64,000 nt of DNA, taken from the NCBI GenBank assembly GCA_963830915.1, contig CAWHOE010000042.1:15186-79185 (forward strand), given 5' to 3'. Positions 16,553 to 51,462 of the stretch are shown here, in pieces. The DNA comes from a candidate division FCPU426 bacterium (lineage in GTDB: Bacteria; Oederibacteriota; Muellerivitia; Muellerivitales; Muellerivitaceae). The position numbers and the translations under genes were made by a program. Positions within the stretch are counted from its first letter, which is position 1, and every line of letters starts with the position of its first letter. Under the pieces are notes generated by a model. That model did not search any database and was not told the DNA's origin. It saw only the letters and a list, made by a program, of their open reading frames with translations.

Positions 16553-16554
16553 AA

Positions 16555-19776: not shown

Positions 19777-19814
19777 GTTGCCCCTTTAGAAAATGAAGTC
19801 CTGGTAGGGTTAAA

Positions 19815-19828
19815 GCAAGAAACGAGCC
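19815..19828 (-). promoter_or_regulatory. sigma-54 -24/-12 promoter (minus strand GGCTCGTTTCTTGC) for 18553-19776
   Basis: GG-N10-GC spacing, followed by TTTAAC as in the other copies; ATG about 40 nt downstream. Confidence 0.5.
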
Positions 19829-19905
19829 GTTCAAAACATGGCCTCTCATCCCGGGATCGTTATCAAAGGGATAGGAAAGGTCGTTAAACTTCAAATTAAT
19901 AAAAT

Positions 19906-19984
19906 GGATCGTTCGATCGAATCGAGTATGACCAAAAATAGGCTATCAATATGAGAGCGATCAGTTCGATCATTTAACATGGAA
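19906..19984. promoter_or_regulatory. Upstream paired GATC-A/T-tract sites (candidate enhancer/UAS) in the divergent region 19777-20185
   Basis: GGATCGTTCGATCGAATCGAG and ATCAATATGAG-N4-GATCAGTTCGATC. Confidence 0.4.
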
Positions 19985-20185
19985 TTTAGCCGAATACCCG
20001 CTTTATTTATTAATAAAGAGTAGTATGGACACTGTCGGGCGGTTCATCCCCCCTTCCTCCCAGGCCCCGGTGAATGTCTTCAAGGAATCCGGACCAAATT
20101 TTATCGTTTTGGTTCAACCAACTCGGCCCCCTCTACACTCTCACGTTGATCTACCGGCAGGCTGAACCCTGCCCAGGAGCCGAAC

Positions 20186-21814
20186 ATGCGCGTCGAAGAC
20201 CTCGACCTAAAAGAACTTTTGGAATATGACCCATCTGGAGGCAAGATCCGTTTTGCCGGACAAAGAGCCCTGATATTCGACGCCGTTTCCCAGGGGCTCC
20301 TTCGCAAAGAGTTGGTCGCCACCTATGGCGAAAGGATCGCCCGGGGCATCCTCAGCCGCTACGGCTATATCCACGGCCGTCGCCTGGCCGAGACCCTGAA
20401 GAACAAGTTCAACTGGGATACGGAAGAAGACTGGCAAAAGGCCGGAGCCCGGGTCTTTGCCCTGCAGGGATTATTCATGCAGGAGCCCGGCATGCCCATC
20501 GCCTTCGGCATGGAAGGCGGGACCTGGCGTGTTTCCTATGAGGCCGAACAGCACCTGCTCCATATGGGCCGTTCGGACGCCCCTGTCTGCTGGAACTTGT
20601 GCGGGCTCATCAGCGGCTACTTGAGCTACGTCGCCGAGAAGGAAATGTACGCGCTGGAGGACAAGTGCGTGGGCAAGGGCGATACGGCCTGCCACGTGAT
20701 GATCAAGACCGAGGAGGAGTGGGGCGAGATCGCGGGCGGGGAATTGGCGGTTTTCAAACGCATGGGCATCGATGACGCCTTGAAGGACGTCACCAGCTCG
20801 CTGAAGCGCACGGAAAGCGAGTTGCGGGAAAAGACCAGGAAGTTGACCCTCATCGCCAAGATCGAGGAGGACCCGGCGGAACTCATGGCGCGCAGCCCGG
20901 GGATGCGCAAATTGATGGAACTGGCCAAGACCATCGCCGCCATCGATTCCACGGTCCTGATCACGGGCGAGAGCGGCACCGGCAAGGAAAGGGTGGCGCG
21001 GTTCGTCCACGACCATTCGGCCCACGCGGACGGCCCCTTCATCGCGGTCAATTGCGGGGCCATCACCGAGACATTGCTGGAGAGCGAGCTCTTCGGCCAC
21101 GCCCGCGGGGCCTTCACCGGCGCGACCACGGACCGGGCCGGCCTTTTCGAGGCGGCCAACGGCGGGACCCTGTTGCTCGACGAGGTGGGCGAGATATCCC
21201 TGCCCATGCAGGTGAAGCTCCTCCGGGCCATCCAGGAGCGGGAAGTGCGAAGGGTCGGCGAGAACAAGAACCGGCCGGTCAGGGTGCGCATCGTCAGCGC
21301 CACCAACAAGGACCTGTCGATCGAGGTGGCAGAAAAAAGATTCCGGGACGACCTCTATTACCGCCTGAACGTGGTGGAACTGGCCGTGCCGCCCCTGCGC
21401 CAAAGGCGGGAGGACATCCTTCCCCTCGCGCGCCTGCTCCTGGCCGAATCGGCCCTTCAAATGAAGCGCCCCGTGGACGGGATGACGCCCGCGGCGGCGG
21501 ACAAATTGCTGGAATACTCCTGGCCCGGCAACGTGCGGGAACTGGCGAACGCCATGGAAAGGGCGGTGGCGGTTGCCAAGACCAACCGCGTGGACGTGGA
21601 GGACCTGCCCCCCCAGGTGCTTTTGATGACGCCGATGGCTTCCAACCAGGGGGATCCCCGGGCCATGAAGGATGTGGAGAAGGATTGCATCCTGAACGCC
21701 CTGGAAAAAACCGACGGCAACCGCCGGAAAGCGGCGGAATTGATGGGACTGGGCGTGGCGACCCTATACCGAAAACTCCGGGCCTACAAGTTGTTGGATA
21801 AGGTGCAGGAATGA
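20186..21814 (+). CDS. sigma-54-dependent transcriptional activator (bEBP) with XylR-N/V4R-type sensor domain and C-terminal Fis-type HTH
   Basis: GESGTGKE Walker A, GAFTGA sigma-54 contact loop, ESELFGH, C-terminal HTH (ALEKTDGNRRKAAELMGL). Confidence 0.85.
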   Translation: MRVEDLDLKELLEYDPSGGKIRFAGQRALIFDAVSQGLLRKELVATYGERIARGILSRYGYIHGRRLAETLKNKFNWDTEEDWQKAGARVFALQGLFMQEPGMPIAFGMEGGTWRVSYEAEQHLLHMGRSDAPVCWNLCGLISGYLSYVAEKEMYALEDKCVGKGDTACHVMIKTEEEWGEIAGGELAVFKRMGIDDALKDVTSSLKRTESELREKTRKLTLIAKIEEDPAELMARSPGMRKLMELAKTIAAIDSTVLITGESGTGKERVARFVHDHSAHADGPFIAVNCGAITETLLESELFGHARGAFTGATTDRAGLFEAANGGTLLLDEVGEISLPMQVKLLRAIQEREVRRVGENKNRPVRVRIVSATNKDLSIEVAEKRFRDDLYYRLNVVELAVPPLRQRREDILPLARLLLAESALQMKRPVDGMTPAAADKLLEYSWPGNVRELANAMERAVAVAKTNRVDVEDLPPQVLLMTPMASNQGDPRAMKDVEKDCILNALEKTDGNRRKAAELMGLGVATLYRKLRAYKLLDKVQE

Positions 21815-21838
21815 GCCGTTTTCCCAGGGGGTTCCTCC

Positions 21839-22759
21839 GTGGGGAATGAACCCGTCGTCACCCAAGGGTCCGCGCAGGAGAAATCGAAGATCAAGGTCCT
21901 TCTCGCGGAGGATCGGCCGGGAGGCTCGCCCTTTTGGGAACAGATCCTCGCCGAAGTCCCGGACGCGGAAATAGAATTCAGCCTGGTCGAGAAATTCGCC
22001 GATGACGCCAAACACTTCGAGGTCAGGACCCCGGACGTCATCATTCTGGACCTTTCCCTGCCGGCGGCGGGATTGGAGGCTTTTTTATCCGTCTATAACA
22101 CGGCCCCCAACATCCCCATCATCGTCGTGACCGGGACGGACAACCAAAAGTTGGCGGTCCAGGCCGCCCTGGCGGGCGCCCAGGACTGCCTGGTCAAGAG
22201 CGATATCAGCGGTTTCCTTTTGAGCCGTTCAATTCGTTACGCTATCGGCCGTCAAAACCATTTAAAACAACTTAAAGCCGTCTCGGTCATCGACGAATTG
22301 ACGGGCCTCTACAACCGGCGGGGTTTCCTGATCTTGGCCGACCAGCGGATCAAAATGTCCGAACGGACGGGGGAATCCCTCTTCCTGGTCTTCGCCGATG
22401 TGGACGGGTTGAAAGCCATCAATGACACTCTGGGGCACCACGGGGGGGACCTGGCGCTCATGGAAAGCGCCCATGTCCTGAGGGAAGCCTTCCGTGAGAC
22501 GGATATATTGGGAAGATTGGGCGGGGATGAGTTCGTGGCCCTTTTAGCCGACGGCGGGGGGGTCAGTCAAGGATCCTTGAGGGAGAGGTTCCAGGGGACG
22601 GTCCAGGAGCATAATGCCTATCGCACCCGAAGCTTCAAACTTTCCATTAGTATCGGCATATCCCTTTTCGATCCCCGCACACCTTGTTCCATCGGGGACC
22701 TGTTGGATAAAGCGGATAAGGAAATGTACGTGCAAAAAAAGGCGGGGAAGGTCGGGTAA
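21839..22759 (+). CDS. Response-regulator receiver domain fused to GGDEF diguanylate cyclase (PleD/WspR-like)
   Basis: REC: KVLLAEDR...DVIILDLSLP; GGDEF: IDELTGLYNRRGF, RLGGDEFVALL, KADKEMY; GTG start. Confidence 0.8.
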   Translation: MGNEPVVTQGSAQEKSKIKVLLAEDRPGGSPFWEQILAEVPDAEIEFSLVEKFADDAKHFEVRTPDVIILDLSLPAAGLEAFLSVYNTAPNIPIIVVTGTDNQKLAVQAALAGAQDCLVKSDISGFLLSRSIRYAIGRQNHLKQLKAVSVIDELTGLYNRRGFLILADQRIKMSERTGESLFLVFADVDGLKAINDTLGHHGGDLALMESAHVLREAFRETDILGRLGGDEFVALLADGGGVSQGSLRERFQGTVQEHNAYRTRSFKLSISIGISLFDPRTPCSIGDLLDKADKEMYVQKKAGKVG

Positions 22760-22823
22760 AAGAGGCGGTCTGAACGGCCAAAGACTTCTTTTGCGTCTCC
22801 AAAACCCTTATTCGCGGGATGTC

Positions 22824-23537
22824 TTAGTTCAGCAGCGCTGGTAGGTTGAAAAGTAATATTTCGGTTGGTTCCTGCGCGGTGAAAGATACCGCTATTTCCA
22901 CCGAGAACCCCGCCCCATCCCCCACGAGAAGTTGAAGGTCGGCCAGGTCGATCTTTCCTTTGACCACGTGCAGCCAGGCGTTCCGGCCGGGTTTCAGCTC
23001 GTGGACCATATGGTTCCCCTTGTGGATGAGCGTGGAATACATTTCCACGTCCTGGCGTATCTTGAGCGAGTCGTCCTTCCCGTCGGGTGAAGCGATGAGT
23101 TTGAGGATGCCCTTGCGGTCGGCCAGGGTGAAGTGCTTGTTTTCGCCGCCCGGTTCGGCCACGCCAGCGCCCGGCGCGAACCCGCTTTGGAATAGGCGGG
23201 CTTCATCGTCAGGGGAGACGTTCAGGGAAAATTGTTTGACGCCGGCCTGGGTTTCAGCCTGATGGAAATCGCCCGCCCGCATCAAGCCGCTCTTGCCCTG
23301 CTGGGGCCTATTGAAGACCATGACCCCTTCATGGAGGTAGGTCACGATCACCATGTCCTTTTGCGTTTGGAGGACGAAGGTCCGGCCCGGCTTTAGGATC
23401 TCCTCATTGAATATCTTGAGCACTCCGAAACCGTTCTGCAGGGGATCGGCTTGGTTTTCATGATCGAAGGTCATCCAGGTCTTTTGATTTTCTGACTCGA
23501 TATGGCGGCGATCCGCCGATCTTCGGATGGTGATCAT
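22824..23537 (-). CDS. Pirin-family cupin protein
   Basis: MITIRRSADR N-terminus and bicupin layout typical of pirin. Confidence 0.75.
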   Translation of the reverse strand: MITIRRSADRRHIESENQKTWMTFDHENQADPLQNGFGVLKIFNEEILKPGRTFVLQTQKDMVIVTYLHEGVMVFNRPQQGKSGLMRAGDFHQAETQAGVKQFSLNVSPDDEARLFQSGFAPGAGVAEPGGENKHFTLADRKGILKLIASPDGKDDSLKIRQDVEMYSTLIHKGNHMVHELKPGRNAWLHVVKGKIDLADLQLLVGDGAGFSVEIAVSFTAQEPTEILLFNLPALLN

Positions 23538-23971
23538 TTCATTTTCCTTAGACGCTTATTTTCCGGACTAACGCTCCCATTGACGATAGAACCGCTTTTA
23601 AACCCACCGACCAACGCCGACTCCACATCCGGAAAAGACCTTAAAAAAGTGTTGAATTCCAATAGCTTGTAGATATCCGTGACGTCCGGACTCATGCCCG
23701 CCAAGACCAGGTCCCCATTCTGCCCGCGGATCTTCTTGATCTCGCTGATGAAGATGCCCCAGCCGGCGCTGCTGATGTATTCCACGTCCGTCAGGTCGAT
23801 CACCAACTTGAACTTTTTATCGTTCAGGACCGACCGAAAGCGTTCCTCGAACTCGGAAGCCGTGACCGTGTCGATCACACCCTGGACTTTTATTAACGTG
23901 ATCCCTTTGTTTCGCTCGTTTTCGGATATGCCGACCGAAATGTGGCTTTTCCCCCCGTCGATATTCATCAC
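23534..23971 (-). CDS. STAS-domain anti-sigma-factor antagonist (SpoIIAA-like)
   Basis: VIDLTDVEYISSAGWGIFISEI, conserved phospho-Ser region of STAS proteins. Confidence 0.7.
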   Translation of the reverse strand: MMNIDGGKSHISVGISENERNKGITLIKVQGVIDTVTASEFEERFRSVLNDKKFKLVIDLTDVEYISSAGWGIFISEIKKIRGQNGDLVLAGMSPDVTDIYKLLEFNTFLRSFPDVESALVGGFKSGSIVNGSVSPENKRLRKMK

Positions 23972-24020
23972 TTTCGATGTCCCAACCGCGCGTTTTCACG
24001 AGAAGCTTTAAGAAAAAGAA

Positions 24021-24034
24021 GCAAGAAACAAGCC
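24021..24034 (-). promoter_or_regulatory. sigma-54 promoter (minus strand GGCTTGTTTCTTGC) for STAS gene
   Basis: GG-N10-GC with TTGC; about 50 nt upstream of ATG 23971. Confidence 0.5.
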
Positions 24035-24095
24035 GGTTCTTATTGGAAATTAGCAACGAATCAGGCTGGTCTTTGATCGGATTTCATCAATGAAA

Positions 24096-24130
24096 ATCAA
24101 AACGAGAATTGAGGGCGATCAATTTGATCG
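24096..24130. promoter_or_regulatory. Candidate UAS: ATCAAAACGAG-N10-GATCAATTTGATCG shared by divergent STAS and OMP promoters
   Basis: Same paired site recurs at about 10 other promoters in the window. Confidence 0.5.
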
Positions 24131-24205
24131 TTCGCGGTCTATAGAAGAACGCGCCGCGGAACGGAAACCGATTTTTATCCTGACCAGCGGAGGGTTTCTG
24201 GGGGG

Positions 24206-24219
24206 GTATGGAACTTGCT
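24206..24219 (+). promoter_or_regulatory. Degenerate sigma-54-like promoter (GGGTATGGAACTTGC, then TTAACACC) for OMP gene
   Basis: Homologous to the CTTGCTTTAACACC core, 1-nt deletion; GG-N10-GC retained. Confidence 0.35.
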
Positions 24220-24257
24220 TAACACCAATGGTCAAATGTTTTCTTGAGCAAAAATAA

Positions 24258-24836
24258 ATGAATGAAAGAGTGATCATGAAAAGGTTTTCTTTAGCGCTGG
24301 GTTGTTCTTTGCTTTTAACGTTGGGAAGCGGCTTCGCTTATGCCGATGAGTCCGTCTCGCCGGTAGGGCCCACGGTGCGTTTGGGCGTGGAGGGAGGTTT
24401 TAACCTGGCCAACTTGAACGGCGCGAACGTGAATGACGCGGTCGGTTCCCGATTAGGGTTCGTGGGGGGCGCTTTCCTGGGTCTGCCCTTGGGAACGAGC
24501 CTGACGCTCCAGCCCGAGATCCTCTATTCCCAAAAAGGCGGGAAGTACAACGGTAATCCCTATCAACTGGATTATTGGGAGATCCCCATTTTGTTGGACG
24601 TGAACCTGGTGGGGCCTTTGGGCCTGCTGCTGGGCCCTTCCTTCGATTTCAACGCGGCGAGTAACGGTGTGGCCAATATCAACAATTCGGACGTAGGGCT
24701 GGTCGTGGGCGGTCAAGTGAATCTCAGCCGTTTCCTGGTCAGCGGTCGTTATGAAGTGGGCCTGACGAACGTGACCAACAATCAAAGCGTCCAGAATGGG
24801 ACCTTCACCTTCATGGTCGGCCTTTCGTTCATTTAA
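24258..24836 (+). CDS. Outer-membrane beta-barrel protein (OmpW/OmpA-like small barrel)
   Basis: Signal peptide, alternating amphipathic strands, C-terminal FMVGLSFI aromatic terminus. Confidence 0.7.
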   Translation: MNERVIMKRFSLALGCSLLLTLGSGFAYADESVSPVGPTVRLGVEGGFNLANLNGANVNDAVGSRLGFVGGAFLGLPLGTSLTLQPEILYSQKGGKYNGNPYQLDYWEIPILLDVNLVGPLGLLLGPSFDFNAASNGVANINNSDVGLVVGGQVNLSRFLVSGRYEVGLTNVTNNQSVQNGTFTFMVGLSFI

Positions 24837-24866
24837 GTATAAAAAACCCATTTACCACGGAGACAC

Positions 24867-24955
24867 ATGCCGACCTTCAATAAAAAAGCTTTAAAAGAGG
24901 TCGGTATAGTACCGATTTCCAATTAATTCAAATTGGATAATCGGCACAGAGACAC
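24867..24955 (+). repeat. Structured repeat family A, copy 1 (ATGCCGACCTT...AGAGGTCGGTATAGTACCGATTTCC...AATCGGCACAGAG)
   Basis: Four-arm inverted-repeat element shared with 27584, 30560, 56252(-), 62172(+), 62289(-). Confidence 0.7.
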
Positions 24956-25050
24956 AGCTAGCTTTTCCACAAAAAATTTGGTTTTAAATCAAAAATCAAG
25001 TTGTAACTGTGAACTCTGTGAGCTGCCGAAGGCAGCCTGTGGTGAAAAGA
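24943..25050 (+). repeat. Repeat family B module: CACAGAG runs plus hairpin GCTGCCGAAGGCAGC-CTGTGGTGAAAAG
   Basis: Same module at 38176-38285 (GCGCCGCCGAAGGCGGC-CTGTGGTAAAAAG). Confidence 0.55.
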
Positions 25051-25100
25051 TTTTATGTTTCAGTGGTGAATAGGTTTTTTGTGAGGGGAAAGGGGCGGTG

Positions 25101-25709
25101 ATGTCCTACAAAGGCCAAAGTTACAAGAGCCTGATCGGAATGCCGGGATTCAGCGATGAATTACTGGATATCCACTTGAAGCTTTACGAGGGTTACGTCG
25201 CCCATTTCAGTTCCATGATCGATTCCCTGAACAAATCAACCAGGGATCCGGGAATGGTTGAGGAGATCGAACGGGAATTTTCCTGGGAGTTCAACGGTGT
25301 CCGGCTCCACGAGGCTTATTTCGGGAACGTGACGAAGCATTTCAATGTCCTGAACCCAGCCTCGGACCTGGCGTTACAGATCGTCAAGGATTTTGGGTCC
25401 GTGGAAGCCTGGGGGGATGATTTCAAGCGGGTGTGCCTCACCCCGGGGGCAGGCTGGGCGGTCCTGGCCTGGAACCCGGAAGAGAAGAGAATGGTCGATC
25501 TGTGGATCGAGGGGCACGAGGTGGGGCCCCTTTTCTACTGTGTTTCCATCCTGGTCAATGATTGTTTCGACCACGCCTATAGGACCGATTATGGGGACGA
25601 CCGGTCGGACTATACTGACGCTTTCCTCAATGTCATCGACTGGAAGGAAATCCAAAAACGATTCCAAACCGTTATCCAATTGTCGAGAGCTTTTGAGTAT
25701 TCCTTATGA
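25101..25709 (+). CDS. Fe/Mn superoxide dismutase family protein (divergent N-terminal motif)
   Basis: C-terminal DCFDHAYRTDYGDDRSDYTDAFLNVIDWKEIQKRF matches the DvWEHAYY...W-V-NW SOD signature; N-term HLKLYEGY in place of HHxKHH. Confidence 0.6.
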   Translation: MSYKGQSYKSLIGMPGFSDELLDIHLKLYEGYVAHFSSMIDSLNKSTRDPGMVEEIEREFSWEFNGVRLHEAYFGNVTKHFNVLNPASDLALQIVKDFGSVEAWGDDFKRVCLTPGAGWAVLAWNPEEKRMVDLWIEGHEVGPLFYCVSILVNDCFDHAYRTDYGDDRSDYTDAFLNVIDWKEIQKRFQTVIQLSRAFEYSL

Positions 25710-25971
25710 CCAAACGATCCATGAATAGACAAAAAGCTAAATTGATCCGGCGAAAAGTCACCCCTCTGTTGCCTCCACCCCAGAATAAAAGGGAAGGATC
25801 GCTTCCCCAGGAACCTGGTTTCCTCAACGAGGTGGATTGTTATGACGAGGGGATATTGTGGAAGCGTTTCAATGAAACAAGGCTTTCCGCCGCGTCCTAT
25901 AGCCGGGGTTGGCCCCGGTGGTATTCATAGTGGTTCGACCTGATGTTTTTCCATGGCGGAACTGGATAAGC

Positions 25972-27015: not shown

Positions 27016-27102
27016 GTCCGCTATTAAAATTGTCTGATGAGTCAACGCCCGTGAGAAAAAATGATTTATAATTTCCCATCGGTAGGTAATGAAAGAGGGA
27101 AA

Positions 27103-27904: not shown

Positions 27905-27972
27905 AACGACTTCCTTGATCGGATTATGCTGCCCAACCTGTTCGTTACATCGGCTTTTGCTTATCCGTAAAA

Positions 27973-27986
27973 GCAAGAAACGAGCC
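27973..27986 (-). promoter_or_regulatory. sigma-54 promoter (GGCTCGTTTCTTGC) for DUF2934 gene
   Basis: GG-N10-GC; about 57 nt upstream of ATG 27904. Confidence 0.5.
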
Positions 27987-28036: not shown

Positions 28037-28070
28037 GATCAAAACGAGAGGCAAATGTCTTTATTGATCG
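28037..28070. promoter_or_regulatory. Candidate UAS GATCAAAACGAG-N12-TTATTGATCG shared by divergent promoters
   Basis: Motif family as at 24096, 31343, 39674, 50944. Confidence 0.45.
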
Positions 28071-28110: not shown

Positions 28111-28124
28111 GGCACGTTCCTTGC
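28111..28124 (+). promoter_or_regulatory. sigma-54 promoter GGCACGTTCCTTGC (+TTTAACACCCTCC) for DUF3494 gene
   Basis: Perfect match to TGGCACG-N4-TTGC consensus; 27-nt block identical to 39803-39830. Confidence 0.6.
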
Positions 28125-28188
28125 TTTAACACCCTCCATGGTTTTCGTTCTCAAAACAGAAATCCAAATAATACGCAAGGAAGTTAAA

Positions 28189-31245: not shown

Positions 31246-31267
31246 GTGTTTTGGGTTAACAGTGAGT

Positions 31268-31281
31268 GCAAGAAACAAGCC
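31268..31281 (-). promoter_or_regulatory. sigma-54 promoter (GGCTTGTTTCTTGCA) upstream of DUF2934 paralog 2
   Basis: GG-N10-GC with TTGCA; long (about 200 nt) leader containing the MITE-like element. Confidence 0.4.
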
Positions 31282-31342
31282 GAGTCGTTTCGATCCGATC
31301 TTTTGTAATTTGACCCTTTTTCGATGGTTCCATCCCAAGAAA

Positions 31343-31376
31343 ATCAAAACGAGACCGAAACCGATCATTTTGATCG
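31343..31376. promoter_or_regulatory. Candidate UAS ATCAAAACGAG-N9-GATCATTTTGATCG
   Basis: About 95-125 nt upstream of the sigma-54 core at 31468. Confidence 0.5.
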
Positions 31377-31467: not shown

Positions 31468-31481
31468 GGCACGTTCCTTGC
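31468..31481 (+). promoter_or_regulatory. sigma-54 promoter GGCACGTTCCTTGC for SPFH/PRC-barrel/H+-ATPase operon
   Basis: Perfect -24/-12 consensus; ATG 31536. Confidence 0.6.
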
Positions 31482-31535
31482 TTTAACACTAACCTCAAGT
31501 CATGGGATCAAATATCTTTCACGGAGGCTTTTGAA

Positions 31536-38606: not shown

Positions 38607-38646
38607 GTTCTCCCTTTCGAGTCTTATTAACTGAGGGATTAATAAA

Positions 38647-38660
38647 GCAAGAAGCAAGCC
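38647..38660 (-). promoter_or_regulatory. sigma-54 promoter (TGGCTTGCTTCTTGC) for 38310-38606
   Basis: GG-N10-GC, TTGC; about 40 nt upstream of ATG 38606. Confidence 0.5.
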
Positions 38661-38711
38661 ACGGGAACGAAGGGTTTATTCCGATATTTTCGGGCTGTTC
38701 GGGAGGGGATT

Positions 38712-38745
38712 ATCAAAATGAGAGTCCGGAGGGTTGTTTTGATCG
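38712..38745. promoter_or_regulatory. Candidate UAS ATCAAAATGAG-N10-GTTGTTTTGATCG
   Basis: Motif family. Confidence 0.45.
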
Positions 38746-38750
38746 ATGGC

Positions 38751-39571: not shown

Positions 39572-39615
39572 TTCCCGCCCTCCTTCCGCTGTCGATACGT
39601 CTGCTTGTGGTCAAA

Positions 39616-39629
39616 GCAAGAAGCGGGCC
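39616..39629 (-). promoter_or_regulatory. sigma-54-like promoter (GGCCCGCTTCTTGC) for PLDc_N gene
   Basis: GG-N10-GC; about 45 nt upstream of ATG 39571. Confidence 0.4.
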
Positions 39630-39673: not shown

Positions 39674-39708
39674 GATCAAAACAAGAGAAGGGAAGATCAT
39701 TTTGATCG
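39674..39708. promoter_or_regulatory. Candidate UAS GATCAAAACAAG-N9-GATCATTTTGATCG
   Basis: Shared by divergent PLDc_N and LysM promoters. Confidence 0.5.
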
Positions 39709-39802: not shown

Positions 39803-39816
39803 GGCACGTTCCTTGC
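39803..39816 (+). promoter_or_regulatory. sigma-54 promoter GGCACGTTCCTTGC (+TTTAACACCCTCCATGG) for LysM gene
   Basis: Identical 27-nt block to 28111-28137. Confidence 0.6.
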
Positions 39817-39886
39817 TTTAACACCCTCCATGGATTTCGTCGATGGCTTAGGAATCCAAATTCTGGAATGAAATTAGGGAAATGAA

Positions 39887-42779: not shown

Positions 42780-42782
42780 CCC

Positions 42783-44832: not shown

Positions 44833-44851
44833 GAATCTCCTCCTGAATAAA

Positions 44852-44865
44852 GCAAGAACCAAGCC
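44852..44865 (-). promoter_or_regulatory. sigma-54-like site (TGGCTTGGTTCTTGC) upstream of 44386-44832
   Basis: Good consensus but only about 8 nt between predicted TSS and ATG 44832. Confidence 0.3.
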
Positions 44866-45042
44866 ACGGTGCCAGGTCTATTCAGCCCACTGTCCCTTCC
44901 TTTTTTTGCCCTGGTTCCCCAAAGGAACTCAAATGGGGAATGGGCCTATCGTTTTGATCGGGAAGGGTCGGGGGAAGGTTGGGCGGGAAGGAAAGACCGG
45001 CGGAATAGAGAGGATTACGGTCATTCGCGCCGGATCGAGGAC

Positions 45043-45057
45043 GGCATATTCCTTGCA
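45043..45057 (+). promoter_or_regulatory. sigma-54 promoter GGCATATTCCTTGCA for GlsB-family gene
   Basis: GG-N10-GC with TTGCA; ATG 45129. Confidence 0.5.
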
Positions 45058-45128
45058 CTAAAGGGAAGGGTGATCCGGACCCAAGTGGAACGGAACGCGC
45101 ATCAACCATTTCAAAGGGAGCGTACAGC

Positions 45129-45407
45129 ATGAACGATTGGATAGGTTTTCACGGGATGTTCTGGTTTTTCGTCGTGGGCGGTTTGGCCGGTTGGTTGGGA
45201 AGCGTGTTGGTAACCGGCGGGGGCATGGGCGTCTTGGCGGATATCGCGGTCGGCATCGCGGGGGCCATCGTGGGCGGATTCATCGCCAATACCCTCAACT
45301 GGTACGTCTATGGTTTTTGGAGCGTCCTGGGGGTCTCGTTGTTGGGCTCGGTCATTTTGCTTGTTCTTTTCCGGGGCTTTAACGGCAGGCGGGGACTGCG
45401 CTCTTAA
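45129..45407 (+). CDS. GlsB/YeaQ/YmgE-family stress-response membrane protein
   Basis: GWLGSVLVTGGGMGVLADIAVGIAGAIVGGFIAN glycine-zipper helices. Confidence 0.8.
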   Translation: MNDWIGFHGMFWFFVVGGLAGWLGSVLVTGGGMGVLADIAVGIAGAIVGGFIANTLNWYVYGFWSVLGVSLLGSVILLVLFRGFNGRRGLRS

Positions 45408-45591
45408 TCCCGCTTCGAGATTATCAAGATCGATCTCATTTAAAGCCGCCAGGGCTTTCCGCATGGCGGCTTTTCTTTTGTGCCGATGAACCTGACTTCG
45501 ATAAATGAAATAGGGACATTCCCTTATTTTTTTTATTAAAAAGAGATTCATGGGAATGTGTGAAAGTTTAAAAAAAGTAATTAGATTTTGC

Positions 45592-45628
45592 TTTTCTTGG
45601 TGCCCTTGGTGCCCTTGGTGGTTCAATT
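45592..45628 (+). repeat. Solo arm of the CCTTGGTG-octamer inverted repeat (TTTTCTTGGTGCCCTTGGTGCCCTTGGTGGTTCAATT)
   Basis: Same arm as 31214-31245 and 52917-52952; its 3' end (GGTGGTTCAATTGC, 45617-45630) also fits GG-N10-GC. Confidence 0.5.
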
Positions 45629-45656
45629 GCCGTTTTTTGAAAGAAAGAAGGACGCC

Positions 45657-46298
45657 GTGAAAAGAAAAATATTGGTCCTGGCGGCCGCGCTGGCCGTGGG
45701 TGGGTTGGTCTGGAGCGCCGTCGCTTTGAACCGTGATTCCAATGGCCAACCGGGCCAGATCCCCCCCGACTTCCTGCGTGGCTCCCAGGTCTGGGTCGAG
45801 GGCAACTCGTCCCTCCACCGCTATTATTTGAATGTGGAAGGCATCTCCGCCCAGACCGACCTGGAGTCGTCCGGCTCCCTGGCGAAGGCCTTGCTGTCCA
45901 TGGTCCTGGGCCACAAGGGGCATAAGCTGGTCGTCACCCTGCCGGTGAGGGAACTGAAGTCGGGCAATCGGGGGATGGACCAGATCGCCCATGAGAAGCT
46001 CCGGGAAGGGAGATTCCCCAATGTCGTATTCACCCTGGGCGATTATGTGATCAAGGCTTTCCCCGGAAGCCTCACGACCTACGCCCTCCTCGTGTCGGGG
46101 AAACTCAGCATCGCGGGAGTGGAAAAGGACGTGGTCCTGGAGCCCACCATGGTCCTGGGAAGGGACGGTATCAGGATCTATGGAAGCCAGGACGTCTTCC
46201 AAAAAGATTACGGTATTTCCCCCTACAGCGTTGCGGTGGTCATGACCACGGACAACAAGATCGTGGTCCATTACATGATCGTGCTGGGGTTAAGATAG
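45657..46298 (+). CDS. YceI-like periplasmic protein
   Basis: GTG start before signal peptide KRKILVLAAALAVGGLVWSAVA; C-terminal YceI-like beta-barrel blocks. Confidence 0.5.
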   Translation: MKRKILVLAAALAVGGLVWSAVALNRDSNGQPGQIPPDFLRGSQVWVEGNSSLHRYYLNVEGISAQTDLESSGSLAKALLSMVLGHKGHKLVVTLPVRELKSGNRGMDQIAHEKLREGRFPNVVFTLGDYVIKAFPGSLTTYALLVSGKLSIAGVEKDVVLEPTMVLGRDGIRIYGSQDVFQKDYGISPYSVAVVMTTDNKIVVHYMIVLGLR

Positions 46299-46302
46299 GG
46301 TC

Positions 46303-47508
46303 ATGGCCAAACCAAGGAAAAAACCCTCAACCTCAAGTTCGCGCCAAGCCTGGACAGGGGAGAAGCTTTATTTCGAGGGAGATGACTATTTCAATGATGT
46401 CCTGAGAGCCATCCGGGGGGCCAAGCGCCGGGTGGACTTTGAGGTCTATATCTTTGAAAAAGGGGAGCTGGGGGACAGGGTCACCGCCGCCCTGCTTCAA
46501 GCGGCCCAAAGGGGGGTCAAGGTCCGCCTGCTGGTGGATGGCATCGGTTCCCCCCAATGCGCCGACGAATACGGCCCCAGGCTGTCCCAAGGCGGGGTAT
46601 CCTTCCGGGTCTATCGCTTTTTCCCCTCGTTATTCAGGATATTCCCCCGGTTCATCACATCCTGGTTCAACCGCAAGACCTCCCATCGGTTCCGGAGTTT
46701 CCGGTACCGCATGAACCGGCGGGACCACCGAAAATTGATCATGGTGGACGGGGAAAAAGTTTGGCTGGGAGGGTTCAATGTTTCCGACCAGCTTCTGGGG
46801 TCGATCGTGGGGAAAAAGGCTTGGCGGGACACGGGGCTGCGCCTTTCGGGCGTTCGGGAACCGGCGTTCAGGTTGGCCTTCGAGACGGCCTGGTATGACA
46901 AATTCCACCGTAGATCATGGAAGTTCTACCGGCATAAGCTGATCGACCGGCTGTCCCGAAGGACTTCCTCCGACCCCGTTCAGATCAACGCCACCCGCAG
47001 GCTTCGCGGCAAGTTCCATAAGCAATTGCTGGCGCGTCTGGGTTCGGCACGCCGGCGGATCTGGGTCACCACACCCTATTTCGTCCCGGCCTTGCCGGTC
47101 CTGCGGGCCTTGCTGGGCGCGGCCCAGAGGGGCTGCGAGGTGCGCCTGCTTCTCCCTGAAAAATCCGACGTTCCTTTCGTTCGGTGGGCTTCCATGACCT
47201 TTTTTCACGGCCTTCTAAGCGCGGGGTGCCGGATCTTCGAGTACCGCCGAAGCGTCCTGCACGCCAAAACCCTTTTGGTGGATGATTGGGCCCTGGTGGG
47301 CTCGAGCAATTTCAACCACCGTAGTTTCCTGTTCGACCTGGAGGTGGACGTGGTCTTGCGGAGCGCCGCCGCCGTGAGGGCGCTGGAGCGCCGGACGGTC
47401 CATGACTTCGAGCGGAGCGGGGAGATCAGGCTCCCGGGTTTCGAATCGCGTCCCTTTTGGGAAAGGTGCTTGACCCGGATATTTTTCCGGCTTCACCATT
47501 GGTTGTAG
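46303..47508 (+). CDS. Phospholipase D family protein (two HKD motifs; ClsB-like cardiolipin synthase)
   Basis: HRKLIMVDG...GGFN and HAKTLLVDDWALVGSSNFNHRS. Confidence 0.8.
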   Translation: MAKPRKKPSTSSSRQAWTGEKLYFEGDDYFNDVLRAIRGAKRRVDFEVYIFEKGELGDRVTAALLQAAQRGVKVRLLVDGIGSPQCADEYGPRLSQGGVSFRVYRFFPSLFRIFPRFITSWFNRKTSHRFRSFRYRMNRRDHRKLIMVDGEKVWLGGFNVSDQLLGSIVGKKAWRDTGLRLSGVREPAFRLAFETAWYDKFHRRSWKFYRHKLIDRLSRRTSSDPVQINATRRLRGKFHKQLLARLGSARRRIWVTTPYFVPALPVLRALLGAAQRGCEVRLLLPEKSDVPFVRWASMTFFHGLLSAGCRIFEYRRSVLHAKTLLVDDWALVGSSNFNHRSFLFDLEVDVVLRSAAAVRALERRTVHDFERSGEIRLPGFESRPFWERCLTRIFFRLHHWL

Positions 47509-48205: not shown

Positions 48206-48237
48206 GGATCATTTTGATAGTCCTTAGGATCATTTCG
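48206..48237. promoter_or_regulatory. Candidate UAS GGATCATTTTGATAG-N7-GATCATTTCG
   Basis: About 100 nt upstream of the sigma-54 core at 48332. Confidence 0.4.
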
Positions 48238-48331
48238 CCATGAAAGAGGCCGTCTTCCTCCGGGACCGATCCCGGAACAGGGATTTCCCAGGCCCGCGGA
48301 GGTCCTTGGCCGGTCGGATCGGGTCCGGCGG

Positions 48332-48345
48332 GGCACGATAGTTGC
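48332..48345 (+). promoter_or_regulatory. sigma-54 promoter GGCACGATAGTTGC (+TCTTAAC) for 48411 gene
   Basis: TGGCACG-N4-TTGC consensus. Confidence 0.55.
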
Positions 48346-48410
48346 TCTTAACTGAACAGGGTTAAACGGCCATTCGGTCATTAGCCGATCAAAACTTTAT
48401 CGGAGAAAAC

Positions 48411-49220
48411 ATGAGAACGAGATTTTTGGGCTTCCTGAAATTCGCTGGTGTTTGCGCGTTCCTATTCGTCGTCTCTTTCCTGGCGGGCACGAGGATCCTT
48501 TGCGCCGACCCCACCTTGCTTCACCTGGATTTCCAGGATGGCCAGGGAGGGAAGGTCCATGTGTCCCACGCCAAGCTGGTCCTGGTGGTGGACAATTACG
48601 TCGATAAGAAATACCTGCCGATCGGGGCGGACGGGGGCGTGGATATTCCCCTGGACGCTTCCTGGCTGAGGGCCAATTGGCCGGGCGGAAAGAACAGGAT
48701 CAAGAACCTGGAACGGGTCTATATCTTCCTGAAAGCACCGGGCTACGCCGCCGTCTGCTCGGACCCGATCCATTGGATGGGAACGGAGTCGGACGGTACG
48801 GAGAAGAACGTGGTGATCACCTTCCCCAGAGGCAAGACCGCGGCCATCTCGAAAGGCGACAAATTCTCCATGACCGTGAGTTTCCGCAAGCCGGTCGACC
48901 GTTCGGTGAAGGTTTCCGACGGGAAGGGACATCCCCTCCCGGGAGTCCTGGTGAAGTCCTTCGTTTATTGGTCCAAGACGGATAAAGGGGCATTGAACGG
49001 CGCTGATTTCCTGGGGGTGGGGACAAGCGACGCCGACGGCAAGGTGCCGGTGATCGACGGGGATTTTACCTATGCCCTGCAGGTGACCCGCCCGGAGGTT
49101 GATGGAAAAGCCTCGGGAACCATCCTGGTGGTGAAGAAGTTCGAGGATAAGGACCAGGAAGCCCCCGTCGCTGTGCCGACCGACGGCCCGACGGTGATCG
49201 ATATGCAAAAGGCCCAATAA
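48411..49220 (+). CDS. Secreted hypothetical protein
   Basis: Signal peptide FLKFAGVCAFLFVVSFLAGTRILCA. Confidence 0.5.
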   Translation: MRTRFLGFLKFAGVCAFLFVVSFLAGTRILCADPTLLHLDFQDGQGGKVHVSHAKLVLVVDNYVDKKYLPIGADGGVDIPLDASWLRANWPGGKNRIKNLERVYIFLKAPGYAAVCSDPIHWMGTESDGTEKNVVITFPRGKTAAISKGDKFSMTVSFRKPVDRSVKVSDGKGHPLPGVLVKSFVYWSKTDKGALNGADFLGVGTSDADGKVPVIDGDFTYALQVTRPEVDGKASGTILVVKKFEDKDQEAPVAVPTDGPTVIDMQKAQ

Positions 49221-49232
49221 ACCGACAAAAGG

Positions 49233-49427
49233 ATGGAATTGATGAAATTACTTATGGCTGGGTTGTTCTCCTGCTTTTTACTTTTATACACTGCCTTCGG
49301 GACGGGCTGTGAACCCTATCACCATCACAATGACGTTCGGGTGAATAAGGATGACCCGGACAACCACCATAACCACCAGGGCGGTAATCCTGAGAACATC
49401 ACCGACCACCAAGAGGATAACCATTGA
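49233..49427 (+). CDS. Small His-rich lipoprotein candidate
   Basis: Lipobox-like FGTGC; HHHNDV...NHHNHQGG; short, low complexity. Confidence 0.3.
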   Translation: MELMKLLMAGLFSCFLLLYTAFGTGCEPYHHHNDVRVNKDDPDNHHNHQGGNPENITDHQEDNH

Positions 49428-49479: not shown

Positions 49480-50556
49480 TTACGCCTTCAGGATCACCTT
49501 CAGGGCCTTGGCCTGGGCGGCGTTGGCGAAAGTCTCATAGGCCTTGATCATTTCGGTGAGGGCGTATTCATGGGTGCCCATCTTCTTGGCGTCCAGTTTT
49601 CCCGACACTAATACCTTCAACAACATGGGCGTGGTCGCGGTATCCACCAGCCTGGTGGTGATGGCGATGTTCCTGTCCCAAAGCCTTTCCAGATGCAATT
49701 CCACCGGTTTGCCGTGCACCCCGATGTTCGCGATCCTTCCGCCCGCCCCAATGATGGACTGGCAGGTATCGAAAGAGCCGGGCGTCCCGACGGCCTCGAT
49801 GGCCACATCCACCCCGTCCCCGTTGGTCAAGGCCTTGATCTTTTCCTCCACCTTCTCCAGCTTGAAGTTGATGGTATGGGTAGCCCCGAAGGACTTGGCC
49901 ACTTTGAGCCGGTTGTCGTCCATATCGATCATGATCAGCTTGGCGGGGGAATAGAACTGGGCGGTCAGGAGGGCGGCCAACCCGATGGGGCCGGATCCCA
50001 CGATGGCGACCGTATCCCCGGGTTTCACCTGGCCGTTCAAGACCCCGCACTCATGTCCCGTGGGAAAGATGTCCGACAGCATCACCAGGGCGCCCTCATC
50101 CACGCCCTCGGGGGCGTGATAAAGGCTGTTATCCGCGTGGGGAATGAGGACATATTGGGCCTGGGTGCCGTCGATGGTGTTGCCCAGTATCCAGCCGCCG
50201 TTTCGGCAATGGGAAAACATCCCCTTCTTGCAGAAATCGCATTTACCGCAGGACGTGACGCAGGAAATAAGGACCTTGTCCCCTTTCTTGAAATTGGTGA
50301 CCGCTGTCCCGCATTCCTCGATGACGCCGACCCCCTCATGGCCCAGGATCCTTCCGTCCGTGACGGCCGGTACGTCGCCTTTCATGATGTGCAGGTCCGT
50401 CCCGCAGATGGTCGTGGTGGTGATACGGACGACCGCGTCGGTGGTCTTTCCCAGGACCGGTTTGGGTTTGTCCTCCCAGGCTTTTTGGTTCGGCCCGTGG
50501 TAGACCAGGGCCTTCATGGTGGCGGTCTTGACCTCTTCCTTGATCATCGTGCTCAT
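49480..50556 (-). CDS. adh: Zinc-dependent alcohol dehydrogenase (MDR family)
   Basis: GHEGVGVIEECG, catalytic/structural Zn Cys cluster CVTSCGKCDFCKKG, Rossmann GSGPIGL. Confidence 0.9.
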   Translation of the reverse strand: MSTMIKEEVKTATMKALVYHGPNQKAWEDKPKPVLGKTTDAVVRITTTTICGTDLHIMKGDVPAVTDGRILGHEGVGVIEECGTAVTNFKKGDKVLISCVTSCGKCDFCKKGMFSHCRNGGWILGNTIDGTQAQYVLIPHADNSLYHAPEGVDEGALVMLSDIFPTGHECGVLNGQVKPGDTVAIVGSGPIGLAALLTAQFYSPAKLIMIDMDDNRLKVAKSFGATHTINFKLEKVEEKIKALTNGDGVDVAIEAVGTPGSFDTCQSIIGAGGRIANIGVHGKPVELHLERLWDRNIAITTRLVDTATTPMLLKVLVSGKLDAKKMGTHEYALTEMIKAYETFANAAQAKALKVILKA

Positions 50557-50635
50557 AACGTCTCCCCTCGTTTATTTGGTGCCCGTTCGAATGGTCCGAA
50601 AGGGTTCTGCGACTAATGGATGGGTAGGAATTAAA

Positions 50636-50649
50636 GCAAGAAATGAGCC
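50636..50649 (-). promoter_or_regulatory. sigma-54 promoter (GGCTCATTTCTTGC+TTTAAT) for ADH
   Basis: GG-N10-GC; about 68 nt upstream of ATG 50556. Confidence 0.5.
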
Positions 50650-50943
50650 GACCAAGACCCGGCTTTGTCATGGATCTACATGTCTATCAGCAAAGCGCAC
50701 CTATATATGGACTTTAGTCAATTTGTTAGAAGCACAATCTCCCCCTCTGAAAGAGGGGGAACAAGGGGGAGTTAGTTTTTATAGGTTATTTCGGTAACGA
50801 CTAATACCCCCCTACCCCCCTTTTTCACCCCCATTTCTTCATTTAAAAATCACAAAAATGAGAATGGGGACGTCCCCATGCCCCGTGATATTTTCCCAAA
50901 AGAGGCATGGGGGAATGGGGGTGTCTGTACCTGGTCCTGAAAA

Positions 50944-50977
50944 ATCAAAATGAGGGTCGGAACGATCAATTTGATCG
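50944..50977. promoter_or_regulatory. Candidate UAS ATCAAAATGAG-N9-GATCAATTTGATCG shared by divergent ADH and rhodanese promoters
   Basis: Motif family. Confidence 0.5.
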
Positions 50978-51038
50978 TAATCGATCCCTAAGTTGAGGAA
51001 CGGGGAAGGGTTAAGGGTGTAAACGCTTGGATTCCAAC

Positions 51039-51052
51039 GGTACAGAACTTGC
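51039..51052 (+). promoter_or_regulatory. sigma-54-like promoter GGTACAGAACTTGC (+TTTAACCC) for rhodanese gene
   Basis: GG-N10-GC, TTGC. Confidence 0.45.
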
Positions 51053-51099
51053 TTTAACCCACAGGCAAGTACCTAACAAAATCTCAAGGAGTGAAACGC

Positions 51100-51462
51100 A
51101 TGCCGATATCCAAAGAAGGCGTCAAGGACAGGATGAAGGACCAGAACGTGGTGGTGTTGGATGTTCTGCCCGAGGCCGAATTCGCGAAGCTTCACATCAA
51201 GGGATCGGAAAACTTTCCTTTGAGCCAGAACGTGGCTGAATTCGTCCAGGCAGTCGAGGCTAAATACGGAAAGAATAAGTTCCTCATCACCTATTGCGCG
51301 GACGTGACCTGCAACGCGGGCCCGAACGCGGCCAAGGTCCTGAAGGAAAAAGGCTTCAAAGCCATCGATTACGCTGGCGGGATCAAGGAGTGGTCGGAGG
51401 CTGGTTACCCGACCGAAGGTTCACAAGCGAAGGTTTCAACGGCACCAGCGGCTTCCAAGTAA
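51100..51462 (+). CDS. Rhodanese-domain (sulfurtransferase) protein
   Basis: Catalytic loop ITYCADVTCNAGPNAA with active-site Cys. Confidence 0.75.
   Translation: MPISKEGVKDRMKDQNVVVLDVLPEAEFAKLHIKGSENFPLSQNVAEFVQAVEAKYGKNKFLITYCADVTCNAGPNAAKVLKEKGFKAIDYAGGIKEWSEAGYPTEGSQAKVSTAPAASK

Follow-up and report, generated by a model that had tools for sequence, protein, structure and literature searches.

A putative sigma-54 regulon of stress, envelope and detoxification genes clustered around a XylR-family activator gene in candidate division FCPU426

XylR/DmpR-type activators are textbook switches of aromatic catabolism in which one ligand turns on one pathway, and they are widely used as biosensors. 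A 64,000-nt stretch of contig CAWHOE010000042.1 (hereafter the window, to which all coordinates refer) raises the question of whether a member of this family can command something much broader. The stretch comes from the candidate division FCPU426 lineage, uncultured soil or peat bacteria belonging to a phylum without a cultured representative. It contains an island of ~34 kb (from ~18.5 to 52.8 kb) in which the gene of a XylR-type bacterial enhancer-binding protein (bEBP; 20186-21814) lies among numerous promoter elements of the -24/-12 type. We read this island as a clustered sigma-54 regulon with a XylR-family activator, which serves stress, envelope and detoxification genes and not a catabolic operon, and we give this reading a probability of about 0.72. 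Literature searches combining FCPU426 with sigma-54, pirin with sigma-54, and V4R or XylR with stress did not reveal a description of this system.

A consensus scan, together with a weight matrix built from the sites, led to the identification of 15 -24/-12 elements between 19.8 and 51.1 kb (Table 1; each promoter is named by the first G of its GG and by its strand). GG-N10-GC and TTGC are present in 15/15 sites, 9-11 of the 12 consensus positions agree, and the common extension of the elements reads (C/G)GGC(A/T)YGTT(C/T)CTTGCTTTAAC. The information content of the matrix is maximal at GG and CTTGC. Leave-one-out scores of the promoters lie between 11 and 31 bits, and at >=12 bits the window holds 19 matches as compared to 1.4 expected (maximum 5) from first-order Markov shuffles. 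All the 15 promoters are followed, in the correct orientation, by an open reading frame (ORF) whose start lies 8-118 nt beyond the estimated start site. Only nine intergenic regions hold them, since twelve of the promoters are arranged back to back as six pairs, namely 24034-/24205+, 27986-/28111+, 31281-/31468+, 39629-/39803+, 44865-/45043+ and 50649-/51039+; the remaining three are 19828-, 38660- and 48332+. A previous reading of this DNA, made from the sequence alone, had counted at least 15 intergenic regions carrying such elements, a number that holds for the promoters and not for the regions.

Two flavours of promoter can be distinguished. Type B (GGCTYGTTTCTTGC) mostly precedes small proteins while type A (GGCACGTTCC or GGTATGGAAC) precedes long operons. 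The extended core said earlier to be shared by many of the promoters is recovered as a 23-nt block, GGCACGTTCCTTGCTTTAACACC, with three occurrences at <=1 mismatch as compared to 0 expected, and the identity between its copies at 28111 and 39803 extends over 31 nt, above the 27 nt claimed. Four extra matches of the matrix were discounted because they lack the GG or lie within coding sequence. The candidates 32535- and 33685-, considered as antisense promoters, lack the GG and fall on the reverse strand of sequence encoding the LNKAK N-termini that PRC paralogues have in common. At the ice-binding-like and LysM promoters (28111-28190 and 39803-39890), similarity runs on into the 5' untranslated region (UTR) with CCATGGWTTTCGT ... 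GAAWTCCAAAT and is partly common to the orthologue in a related genome (L008, 14547-14625), and an ATG at 39830 starts a 13-codon ORF in the LysM leader. This shared segment may encode a leader peptide or act as an element of the UTR; an Rfam search of the island 5' UTRs matched no known RNA family.

The second recurrent feature is an enhancer in which two pseudo-palindromes of 13 bp, AATCAAAAYGAG and GATCAWTTTGATCG, are arranged as an inverted pair with a centre-to-centre distance of 21-22 bp (two helical turns). A strict composite of the form ATCAAAATGA-N11-13-TCATTTTGAT with <=4 mismatches is found 7 times in the window where 0.75 would be expected, and six of these seven lie within the range of 19.8-51.1 kb, serving 10 promoters. 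Degenerate enhancers serve 27986-/28111+, 44865-/45043+, 48332+ and 19828-. An enhancer arm (<=1 mismatch) is present 30-220 bp upstream of 14 of the 15 promoters, while random placement gives a mean of 1.26 promoters with an arm and a maximum of 6 in 5000 trials. These statistics of co-occurrence and spacing bear out the association of promoter and paired site noticed in the sequence-only reading. The distance from enhancer centre to GG ranges from 58 to 128 bp, roughly as in the earlier estimate of about 100-130 nt. The number of GATC sites (418 observed as compared to 376 expected), counted with Dam-type methylation control in mind, is neither depleted nor much enriched. The 15 elements are very probably sigma-54 promoters with a cognate enhancer.

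The sequence-only reading had missed that most of the promoters are divergent pairs sharing one enhancer, and that this enhancer is polar. The AATCAAAAYGAG arm always faces the type B promoter, with the enhancer centre 58-88 bp from GG (mode 79), and the GATCAWTTTGATCG arm faces type A, with the centre 80-112 bp from GG in the window; the corresponding distance in relatives is mostly 119-128 bp. Over 40 promoter-enhancer pairs, drawn from the window, from 8 genome loci and from 5 metagenome contigs, geometry and polarity agree. Single enhancers placed between two back-to-back sigma-54 promoters have precedents. In E. coli, ZraR at zraP/zraSR and FhlA at hyc/hyp serve divergent sigma-54 promoters from one shared activator site. 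OrpR, together with integration host factor (IHF), activates two divergent orp operons in Desulfovibrio vulgaris (PMC8359166). In contrast to these cases, the module of the island recurs six times within 31 kb, always with the same polarity and with two flavours of promoter, and is kept across genomes; no description of such a six-fold repeated polar module with two promoter flavours was found in the literature.

Among characterised systems, XylR with Pu and Ps of the TOL plasmid pWW0 and DmpR with Po come nearest to the island. The layout is reminiscent of the XylR-dependent Pu promoter, where two inverted sites are located ~100-150 bp upstream of a -24/-12 promoter; the island enhancer lies at about -85 to -150. 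The enhancer of Pu from pWW0 reads TTGATCAAATC...GATTTGCTCAA and the Ps region reads TTAATCAATTGGTTAATC. The palindrome TTGATCAATTGATCAA, named earlier as a XylR-type site, does not occur in Pu, and the likeness of the sites extends to the GATCAAA core and the inverted two-site plan only. The island sites differ from Pu in being 13-bp pseudo-palindromes 21-22 bp apart, with other sequence and other spacing. Between the second arm and the type A promoters, two recurrent A/T-rich blocks are seen (for example at 24166-24181 of the window, and in relatives at L008 17567-17600 and L011 13360-13380), one of them GAAAAWTTT at ~25 bp past the second arm and the other GAAAnCGnTnTTTATC at ~55 bp upstream of GG. 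An A/T-rich block is situated between enhancer and promoter at the position of the IHF site of Pu. By analogy with that site, these blocks could be bending or architectural-protein sites or UP-like elements.

The product of 20186-21814, the sole bEBP encoded in the window, has the sensor that the sequence-only reading assigned to it. Pfam identifies XylR_N (6e-26), V4R (4e-9), Sigma54_activat (PF00158, 1e-69), AAA_lid and HTH_8 (4.5e-14). The protein is 35% identical to XylR of pWW0 over the full length, the DmpR structure 6iy8 aligns to residues 7-474, and the structures of ZraR, NtrC1 and PspF match it at E-values from 1e-88 to 1e-55. It has the same domain order as XylR/DmpR, namely XylR_N, V4R with a Cys/Glu/Cys/Cys zinc site, B-linker, AAA+ with GAFTGA, and HTH_8. 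Walker A and B (GESGTGKE, LLLDEVGE) and GAFTGA are intact in the alignment. The zinc ligands C135/E158/C161/C169 (Cys-X23-Glu-X2-Cys-X7-Cys) are invariant in the bEBP clade and the pocket tryptophan W114 is nearly so; both are common to XylR. The counterpart of DmpR His100 is Phe91, while XylR has Tyr at this position; in DmpR this histidine anchors the phenol hydroxyl (PMC7264223), so that the island protein differs from DmpR in having Phe in place of the phenol-anchoring residue. It differs from XylR in two residues beside the zinc ligands, C139 and H170 (window ~20600-20695), which are specific to the clade and nearly invariant in it, and which hint at an altered metal or redox chemistry of the sensor. 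An Fe-S redox sensor by analogy with OrpR was considered and rejected, since the sensor of OrpR is a PAS domain instead of V4R and therefore provides no precedent for Fe-S sensing here. The recognition helix GVATL(Y/H)RKL is kept across the bEBP orthologues of FCPU426 and of a high-GC clade described below; it reads GVATLYRKL in the island protein as compared to RPAMAYRL in XylR. Judging from linkage, this protein is probably the activator of the island promoters.

The surroundings of the bEBP gene show several features of their own. Upstream of its start, at 20040-20150, the blocks GGCCCCGGnGAATGTC, GAATCCGGACCAAA and TTGGTTCAACCAACTCGGCC are kept in three genomes (the window, L001 and L002); they are distinct from the enhancer and presumably represent the promoter or leader of the bEBP gene itself. 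A consensus sigma-70 scan upstream of the gene gave no match, and such a scan is uninformative for this phylum. Promoter 19828- is divergent from the bEBP gene, and only the first arm of the enhancer-like site at 19944 is kept in L001. The divergent partner (18553-19776, minus strand), a conserved partner in FCPU426, encodes a secreted protein of 407 amino acids with a region rich in Gln, Arg and Pro and a domain strikingly rich in Trp and Tyr (…GWYAGDQFFWTRNYNGRWWWYDSGFNRWCFYNDNYWWWQDPYH…), for which no family match was obtained. The response-regulator/GGDEF gene which follows the bEBP gene is probably co-transcribed with it; its orthologue in L001 and L007 is located after pirin, downstream of a regulon-type sigma-54 promoter.

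Comparison with related loci extends these observations beyond a single contig. We compared L001-L011, which carry FCPU426 or 'uncultured bacterium' labels, and the high-GC relatives L021-L023. An exact search for the bEBP in public assemblies gave no match, and homologues 71-91% identical to it point to the FCPU426 lineage. The closest proteins to the bEBP are 67-91% identical, and such conservation across two phylum-level lineages is unusual when compared with XylR/DmpR. In ten related FCPU426 loci the same families, in shuffled order, are still clustered round the bEBP gene: pirin, STAS, DUF2934, rhodanese, the 163-aa protein, outer-membrane protein (OMP), superoxide dismutase (SOD)-like, GlsB, LysM, AI-2E, DUF4403, ice-binding-like, YceI, PRC and cupin. 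The GGTAT variant of promoter 24205+ is kept in orthologues, and the order rhodanese-g51658 is kept in L007, L009, L011 and L017. Among 32 promoter matches in the related loci, 28 have an enhancer arm 30-220 bp upstream, where ~8% would be expected. When the regions upstream of the OMP gene from seven genomes are aligned (mean column identity 52%), they are conserved solely at the two arms and the -24/-12 block, and the promoter-specific GGTATGGAAC variant is kept as well. As a blind check and not a census of the regulon, metagenomes were scanned for the enhancer alone; only six contigs were recovered because exact matches were needed. All six carry regulon-type genes, and five have a -24/-12 element 119-127 bp downstream; one of these five also contains a divergent type B promoter and a bEBP fragment. 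The printed stretch of the sixth ended at GGCACG.

The high-GC relatives represent a more distant clade. Their contigs have 64-70% GC, the bEBP is 67-71% identical, and neighbouring genes include PSCyt/PSD1/DUF1501, typical of Planctomycetota. Here the bEBP gene is divergent from pirin and is flanked by groES-groEL, Usp, hemerythrin, AI-2E, SOD-like, ice-binding-like, phospholipase D (PLD) and response-regulator/GGDEF genes.

The nature of the regulon has to be judged from its targets. Pfam and NCBIfam assign to them STAS, pirin, OMP beta-barrel, SOD-like, NHL, Ice_binding/DUF3494, old yellow enzyme (OYE), SPFH, three PRC, LysM (with a Kbp-like C-terminus and a match to NF008399), cupin, AI-2E, DUF4403, DUF883_C, Transgly_assoc (GlsB), YceI, PLDc_2, zinc-dependent alcohol dehydrogenase (Zn-ADH) and rhodanese, besides DUF2934 (one clear match and one weak) and a type IIIA H+-efflux ATPase (TIGR01647, 1080 bits). 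Most of the families named in the sequence-only reading (STAS, DUF2934, GlsB, DUF883, LysM, rhodanese, Zn-ADH, DUF3494, OMP and the SPFH/PRC/H+-ATPase operon) are thereby recovered, while BON, DUF1469 and PLDc_N are not, since Pfam gave no match to them in the scanned ORFs, even at E-values up to 5 for unassigned ORFs. No oxygenase or ring-cleavage gene is present among the 40 island ORFs, nor in L001-L011 and L021-L023, and hence the adjacent aromatic catabolic operon, a hallmark of XylR/DmpR systems, is missing from the window and the 14 related loci. Whereas members of that family usually serve one or two catabolic promoters beside the regulator gene, the island has 15 promoters ahead of stress, envelope and detoxification genes. 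The gene content suggests that the output is a protective programme of envelope, redox and detoxification functions.

DUF883 (of the ElaB/YqjD type), Transgly_assoc (YmgE/GlsB), YceI, LysM, STAS, PRC barrel, Zn-ADH, pirin, Usp and GroESL belong to known general stress regulons. The protein families of the sigma-S (E. coli), sigma-B (Bacillus) and EcfG/PhyR (Alphaproteobacteria) regulons overlap with those of the island and its gene content is compatible with such a regulon, but three differences are evident. Control in the island would be exerted through sigma-54 and an ATP-dependent bEBP, not by replacement of the sigma factor; no partner-switching or anti-sigma module was identified in the island, apart from a lone STAS protein; and the genes of general stress regulons are unlinked, with one master regulator through which several unrelated stresses induce them together, whereas those of the island are clustered, as far as visible. 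The gene content together with groESL and Usp in the sister clade makes 'stress regulon' a fair label, though it is deduced from what the genes encode, and we regard the chances that 'stress response' is the correct functional label as evenly balanced. Of the picture drawn from the sequence alone, the dense sigma-54 regulon, the shared core, the paired enhancer at roughly 100 bp and the XylR-type bEBP as likely activator stand, while 'general stress' depends on gene content. In a 2025 survey (PMC12316311), chaperone, Usp and MscS genes of Planctomycetia were computationally assigned sigma-54 promoters, which resembles our case in that stress-type genes are predicted to be sigma-54 dependent in the lineage which holds the sister clade of the island bEBP. 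The keyword passages of that survey contain no XylR-type activator, enhancer or pirin link, V4R appears in its introduction only, and no treatment of FCPU426 was found in them.

As to the signal, we would guess at a hydrophobic or aromatic compound, or else at a disturbed membrane or redox state, perceived by the conserved V4R pocket and the zinc site; a signal of this kind would make the system a chemical-stress or general-stress regulon and not a catabolic one. An aromatic or hydrophobic toxicant as the trigger would fit the ancestry of the sensor and the tight linkage to pirin, with a physiological signal as the alternative. It is possible, and we hold it as a tentative alternative, that the same mechanism has a narrower function. 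The regulon would then be dedicated to toxic aromatics of plant or peat origin (phenolics, flavonoids, quinones or solvent-like compounds), which the XylR-type pocket would sense directly, and not to general stress with its many signals. Over its whole length the sensor is homologous to the effector-binding domains of XylR/DmpR, with W114 and the zinc site conserved, and the Phe91 position, occupied by the phenol-anchoring His in DmpR (PMC7264223), is a Tyr in XylR. The target linked most tightly to the bEBP in both clades is a quercetinase-type pirin, other targets include OYE, Zn-ADH, cupin, YceI and membrane-remodelling proteins, and the related metagenome-assembled genomes (MAGs) come from palsa peat and Danish environmental samples, going by record names. 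However, conservation of the pocket does not identify the ligand of the bEBP, C139 and H170 beside the zinc ligands hint at altered metal or redox chemistry, and an aromatic link is not obvious for DUF2934, DUF883, PRC, STAS and the ice-binding-like protein, or for groESL and Usp in the relatives.

A broader proposal, which we advance as speculation and consider rather doubtful in its full extent, is that FCPU426 and the Planctomycetota-like sister clade run their general stress response through sigma-54 and one conserved XylR_N/V4R bEBP, and not through sigma-S, sigma-B or EcfG. The pocket, ancestrally one for aromatics, and the zinc site, with the added Cys and His, would have been repurposed for a physiological stress signal, and each polar bidirectional module would allow one bound activator to switch on a gene for a small protein in one direction and a long protective operon in the other.

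A different question is whether the activator has been correctly identified. The regulon and its enhancer could be real and yet be served by another bEBP encoded outside the window, either a paralogue or an unrelated protein, while the local bEBP controls its immediate neighbours or something else. The visible portion of the genome amounts to 64 kb, two related MAGs have two bEBP loci each on separate contigs (L004 and L007; L003 and the partial L010), and L003 and L004 lack regulon genes yet possess the recognition helix GVATLYRKL. Against this, a bEBP orthologue is embedded in the island at every FCPU426 locus that carries regulon genes, and at one of the six enhancer-only metagenome contigs the match adjoins a bEBP fragment. 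The high-GC clade is more informative. Canonical TGGCACG-N4-TTGC promoters are present there, and the AT-rich 13-mer is found essentially just in the intergenic region between the bEBP gene and pirin, in one case as the full two-arm composite with the usual polarity. The near confinement of the 13-mer to this region, together with the retained helix, is the strongest argument that this bEBP family reads the enhancer, and it is an argument from linkage. We therefore regard an activator encoded elsewhere as unlikely, and retain the bEBP of 20186-21814 as the probable activator.

Further elements were observed in the high-GC relatives (L021 7455-7560; L022 9840-9885 and 9955-9980; L023 9855-9890 and 9955-9980). 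A TGGCACG-N4-TTGC promoter lies ahead of groES with a copy of GATCAAAATGAT in its leader. A second palindrome, GTCTnTCAAAATGATAGAS, is located ~30 bp ahead of the bEBP start codon in two high-GC genomes and could be an autoregulatory operator.

It is very improbable that the repeated blocks are remnants of a duplicated or mobile intergenic cassette, or else ECF-type promoters with a coincidental resemblance to sigma-54 sites: the identity of 28111 and 39803 over 31 nt and into the 5' UTR suggests some copying between loci and GGAAC is present in the GGTATGGAAC variant, but the DNA between the blocks shows no relatedness, whether regions of the window or different genomes are compared, the positions that never vary are precisely GG and TTGC with the spacing of sigma-54 sites, GGAAC is followed by no -10-like CGTT element, the island encodes a bEBP with GAFTGA, and orthologous genes still have the blocks upstream of them after shuffling of gene order and a shift in GC from 53 to 70%.

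Several observations weigh against the reading of the island as a XylR-type sigma-54 stress regulon. Four of the enhancers (19944, 28037, 44927 and 48207) deviate in spacing or are degenerate, no enhancer arm lies within 220 bp of promoter 50649-, and a good composite at 16765-16798 (GATCAAATTGATC-N8-TTATTTTGATAG) has no -24/-12 element nearby. Helical phasing between enhancer and promoter is weak (Rayleigh p ~0.03 for type B and ~0.08 for type A, computed over non-independent orthologues). The extended -12 block TTGCTTTAAC may be the general sigma-54 consensus of the lineage and not a feature of the regulon. Some relatives (L003 and L004) have a second paralogue with the same recognition helix, which could therefore share or own the enhancer. 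The label 'stress' derives from family names, with eleven target ORFs lacking a family assignment, and we infer start sites, sigma-54 dependence and bEBP binding alike from sequence. Two of the sites have surroundings that deserve description. The 16765 composite is located between the AbiEii terminator and a 212-aa secreted-looking ORF and is either an orphan site or a chance match. Promoter 50649- borders an unusually long gap of 390 bp (50649-/51039+), within which 50700-50930 contains G-rich and C-rich runs and a hairpin, CCCCCTCTGAAAGAGGGGG; an insertion here may have separated the promoter from its enhancer.

Taken as a XylR-family sigma-54 regulon, the island would work as follows. Sigma-54 RNA polymerase would sit on the 15 promoters as a closed complex, and each promoter or back-to-back pair would be served by one two-arm enhancer, to which, judging from linkage, the XylR/DmpR-family bEBP would bind, with one dimer per 13-mer by analogy with XylR/DmpR. 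The same analogy suggests that the sensor domain would hold the ATPase off until the signal arrives. The bEBP would then oligomerise, loop to either of the flanking promoters and open it with ATP, and bending of the DNA may be aided by the A/T-rich block which lies on the way from the second arm to the distal promoter. As far as gene content indicates, the output would comprise envelope and membrane functions (OMPs, SPFH, a PLD-type lipid enzyme, H+-ATPase, GlsB, DUF883, YceI and LysM), redox and detoxification functions (pirin, cupin, OYE, Zn-ADH, SOD-like and rhodanese) and small stress-type proteins (DUF2934 and STAS).

Table 1. Predicted regulatory elements and regulator genes of the island (window coordinates; promoters and enhancers are predictions; an arrow leads to the genes downstream; a dot marks elements without strand).
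Feature	Position	Strand	Remark
Type B promoter GGCTCGTTTCTTGCTTTAACC -> secreted Trp/Tyr-rich protein (18553-19776)	19808..19828	-	Kept in L001, L002
Atypical compressed enhancer-like site TATCAATATGAG-AGC-GATCAGTTCGATC, between promoter 19828- and bEBP gene	19944..19971	.	
bEBP gene, 542 aa: XylR_N + V4R sensor, AAA+ with GAFTGA, HTH_8	20186..21814	+	Pfam
Response-regulator/GGDEF gene, 25 bp past bEBP gene	21839..22759	+	Pfam
Type B promoter -> STAS (23534-23971), pirin (22824-23537)	24014..24034	-	
Shared enhancer AATCAAAACGAG-N9-GATCAATTTGATCG	24095..24130	.	Kept in seven genomes
Type A variant promoter GGTATGGAACTTGC -> OMP beta-barrel, SOD-like, NHL, further genes (24258-27570)	24205..24225	+	
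Type B promoter -> DUF2934 small protein (27728-27907)	27966..27986	-	
Shared enhancer, good first arm GATCAAAACGAG, degenerate second (..TTGATCG)	28037..28070	.	
Type A promoter -> Ice_binding/DUF3494, coiled-coil protein, OYE flavin oxidoreductase (28138-30534)	28111..28131	+	
Type B promoter -> DUF2934-like small protein (30872-31138)	31261..31281	-	
Shared enhancer AATCAAAACGAG-N8-GATCATTTTGATCG	31342..31376	.	
Type A promoter -> SPFH, three PRC-barrel, type IIIA H+-ATPase, downstream ORFs (31536-~38218)	31468..31488	+	
Type B promoter -> 98-aa protein (38310-38606)	38640..38660	-	
Enhancer TATCAAAATGAG-N10-GTTGTTTTGATCG	38711..38746	.	
Type B promoter -> small proteins (39354-39572, 38751-38963)	39609..39629	-	
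Shared enhancer GATCAAAACAAG-N8-GATCATTTTGATCG	39674..39708	.	
Type A promoter -> LysM, cupin, AI-2E transporter, 264-aa protein, DUF4403 (39887-43886)	39803..39823	+	
Type B promoter -> 148-aa protein, DUF883 (44079-44832)	44845..44865	-	
Shared enhancer, degenerate first arm, good second TATCGTTTTGATCG	44927..44960	.	
Type A promoter -> GlsB/Transgly_assoc, YceI-like, PLD-family genes (45129-47508)	45043..45063	+	
Enhancer variant GATCATTTTGATA, then GATCATTTCGCCA 21 bp on	48207..48240	.	
Sigma-54 promoter -> 269-aa and 64-aa proteins (48411-49427)	48332..48352	+	
Type B promoter -> Zn-ADH (49480-50556)	50629..50649	-	
Enhancer AATCAAAATGAG-N8-GATCAATTTGATCG	50943..50977	.	
Promoter GGTACAGAACTTGC -> rhodanese, two paralogous 163/168-aa proteins (51100-52760)	51039..51059	+	

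The left flank of the island (1-18000) is of a different nature and looks like an integrated mobile element. It contains a TraG-like P-loop gene, two tyrosine-integrase genes and an AbiEi/AbiEii toxin-antitoxin pair (landmarks at 8-1174, 4250-5320, 13403-14473 and 14994-16552), and its GC content is 45-49% as compared to 50-61% in the island. The two integrase genes are 92% identical over >=300 nt and lie 9153 bp apart. Just upstream of the AbiEi gene, 14686-14920 consists of two tandem copies of a 115-120-nt unit which are 84% identical. A fluoride riboswitch at 6928-6993 on the plus strand (Rfam RF01734, scoring 49 bits where the gathering score is 34) lies ahead of a Na+/H+-exchanger-family gene, followed by Usp, dynamin-like GTPase and enolase genes (ORFs 6970-8316, 8313-8732, 9506-11224 and 11270-12544). 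The stretch 6928-12544 resembles a unit for the response to fluoride and seems to have no relation to the sigma-54 island.

The new aspect of this locus is the probable shift of a XylR-family sigma-54 regulon away from catabolism and towards protection by several operons, in a phylum that has no cultured member. One protein of the XylR/DmpR family appears to command at least 15 promoters, which serve envelope, redox and small stress proteins. If this is true, a sensor of this family can be coupled to a global protective programme, and a concrete answer would be at hand to how stress genes are co-ordinated in PVC (Planctomycetes-Verrucomicrobia-Chlamydiae)-related soil and peat bacteria. The system would also offer a compact set of parts, consisting of a 35-bp enhancer, two promoter flavours and one activator, which could be rebuilt in E. 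coli without culturing the organism. The polar bidirectional module is a clean system in which to ask how one enhancer-bound AAA+ assembly picks between two promoters.

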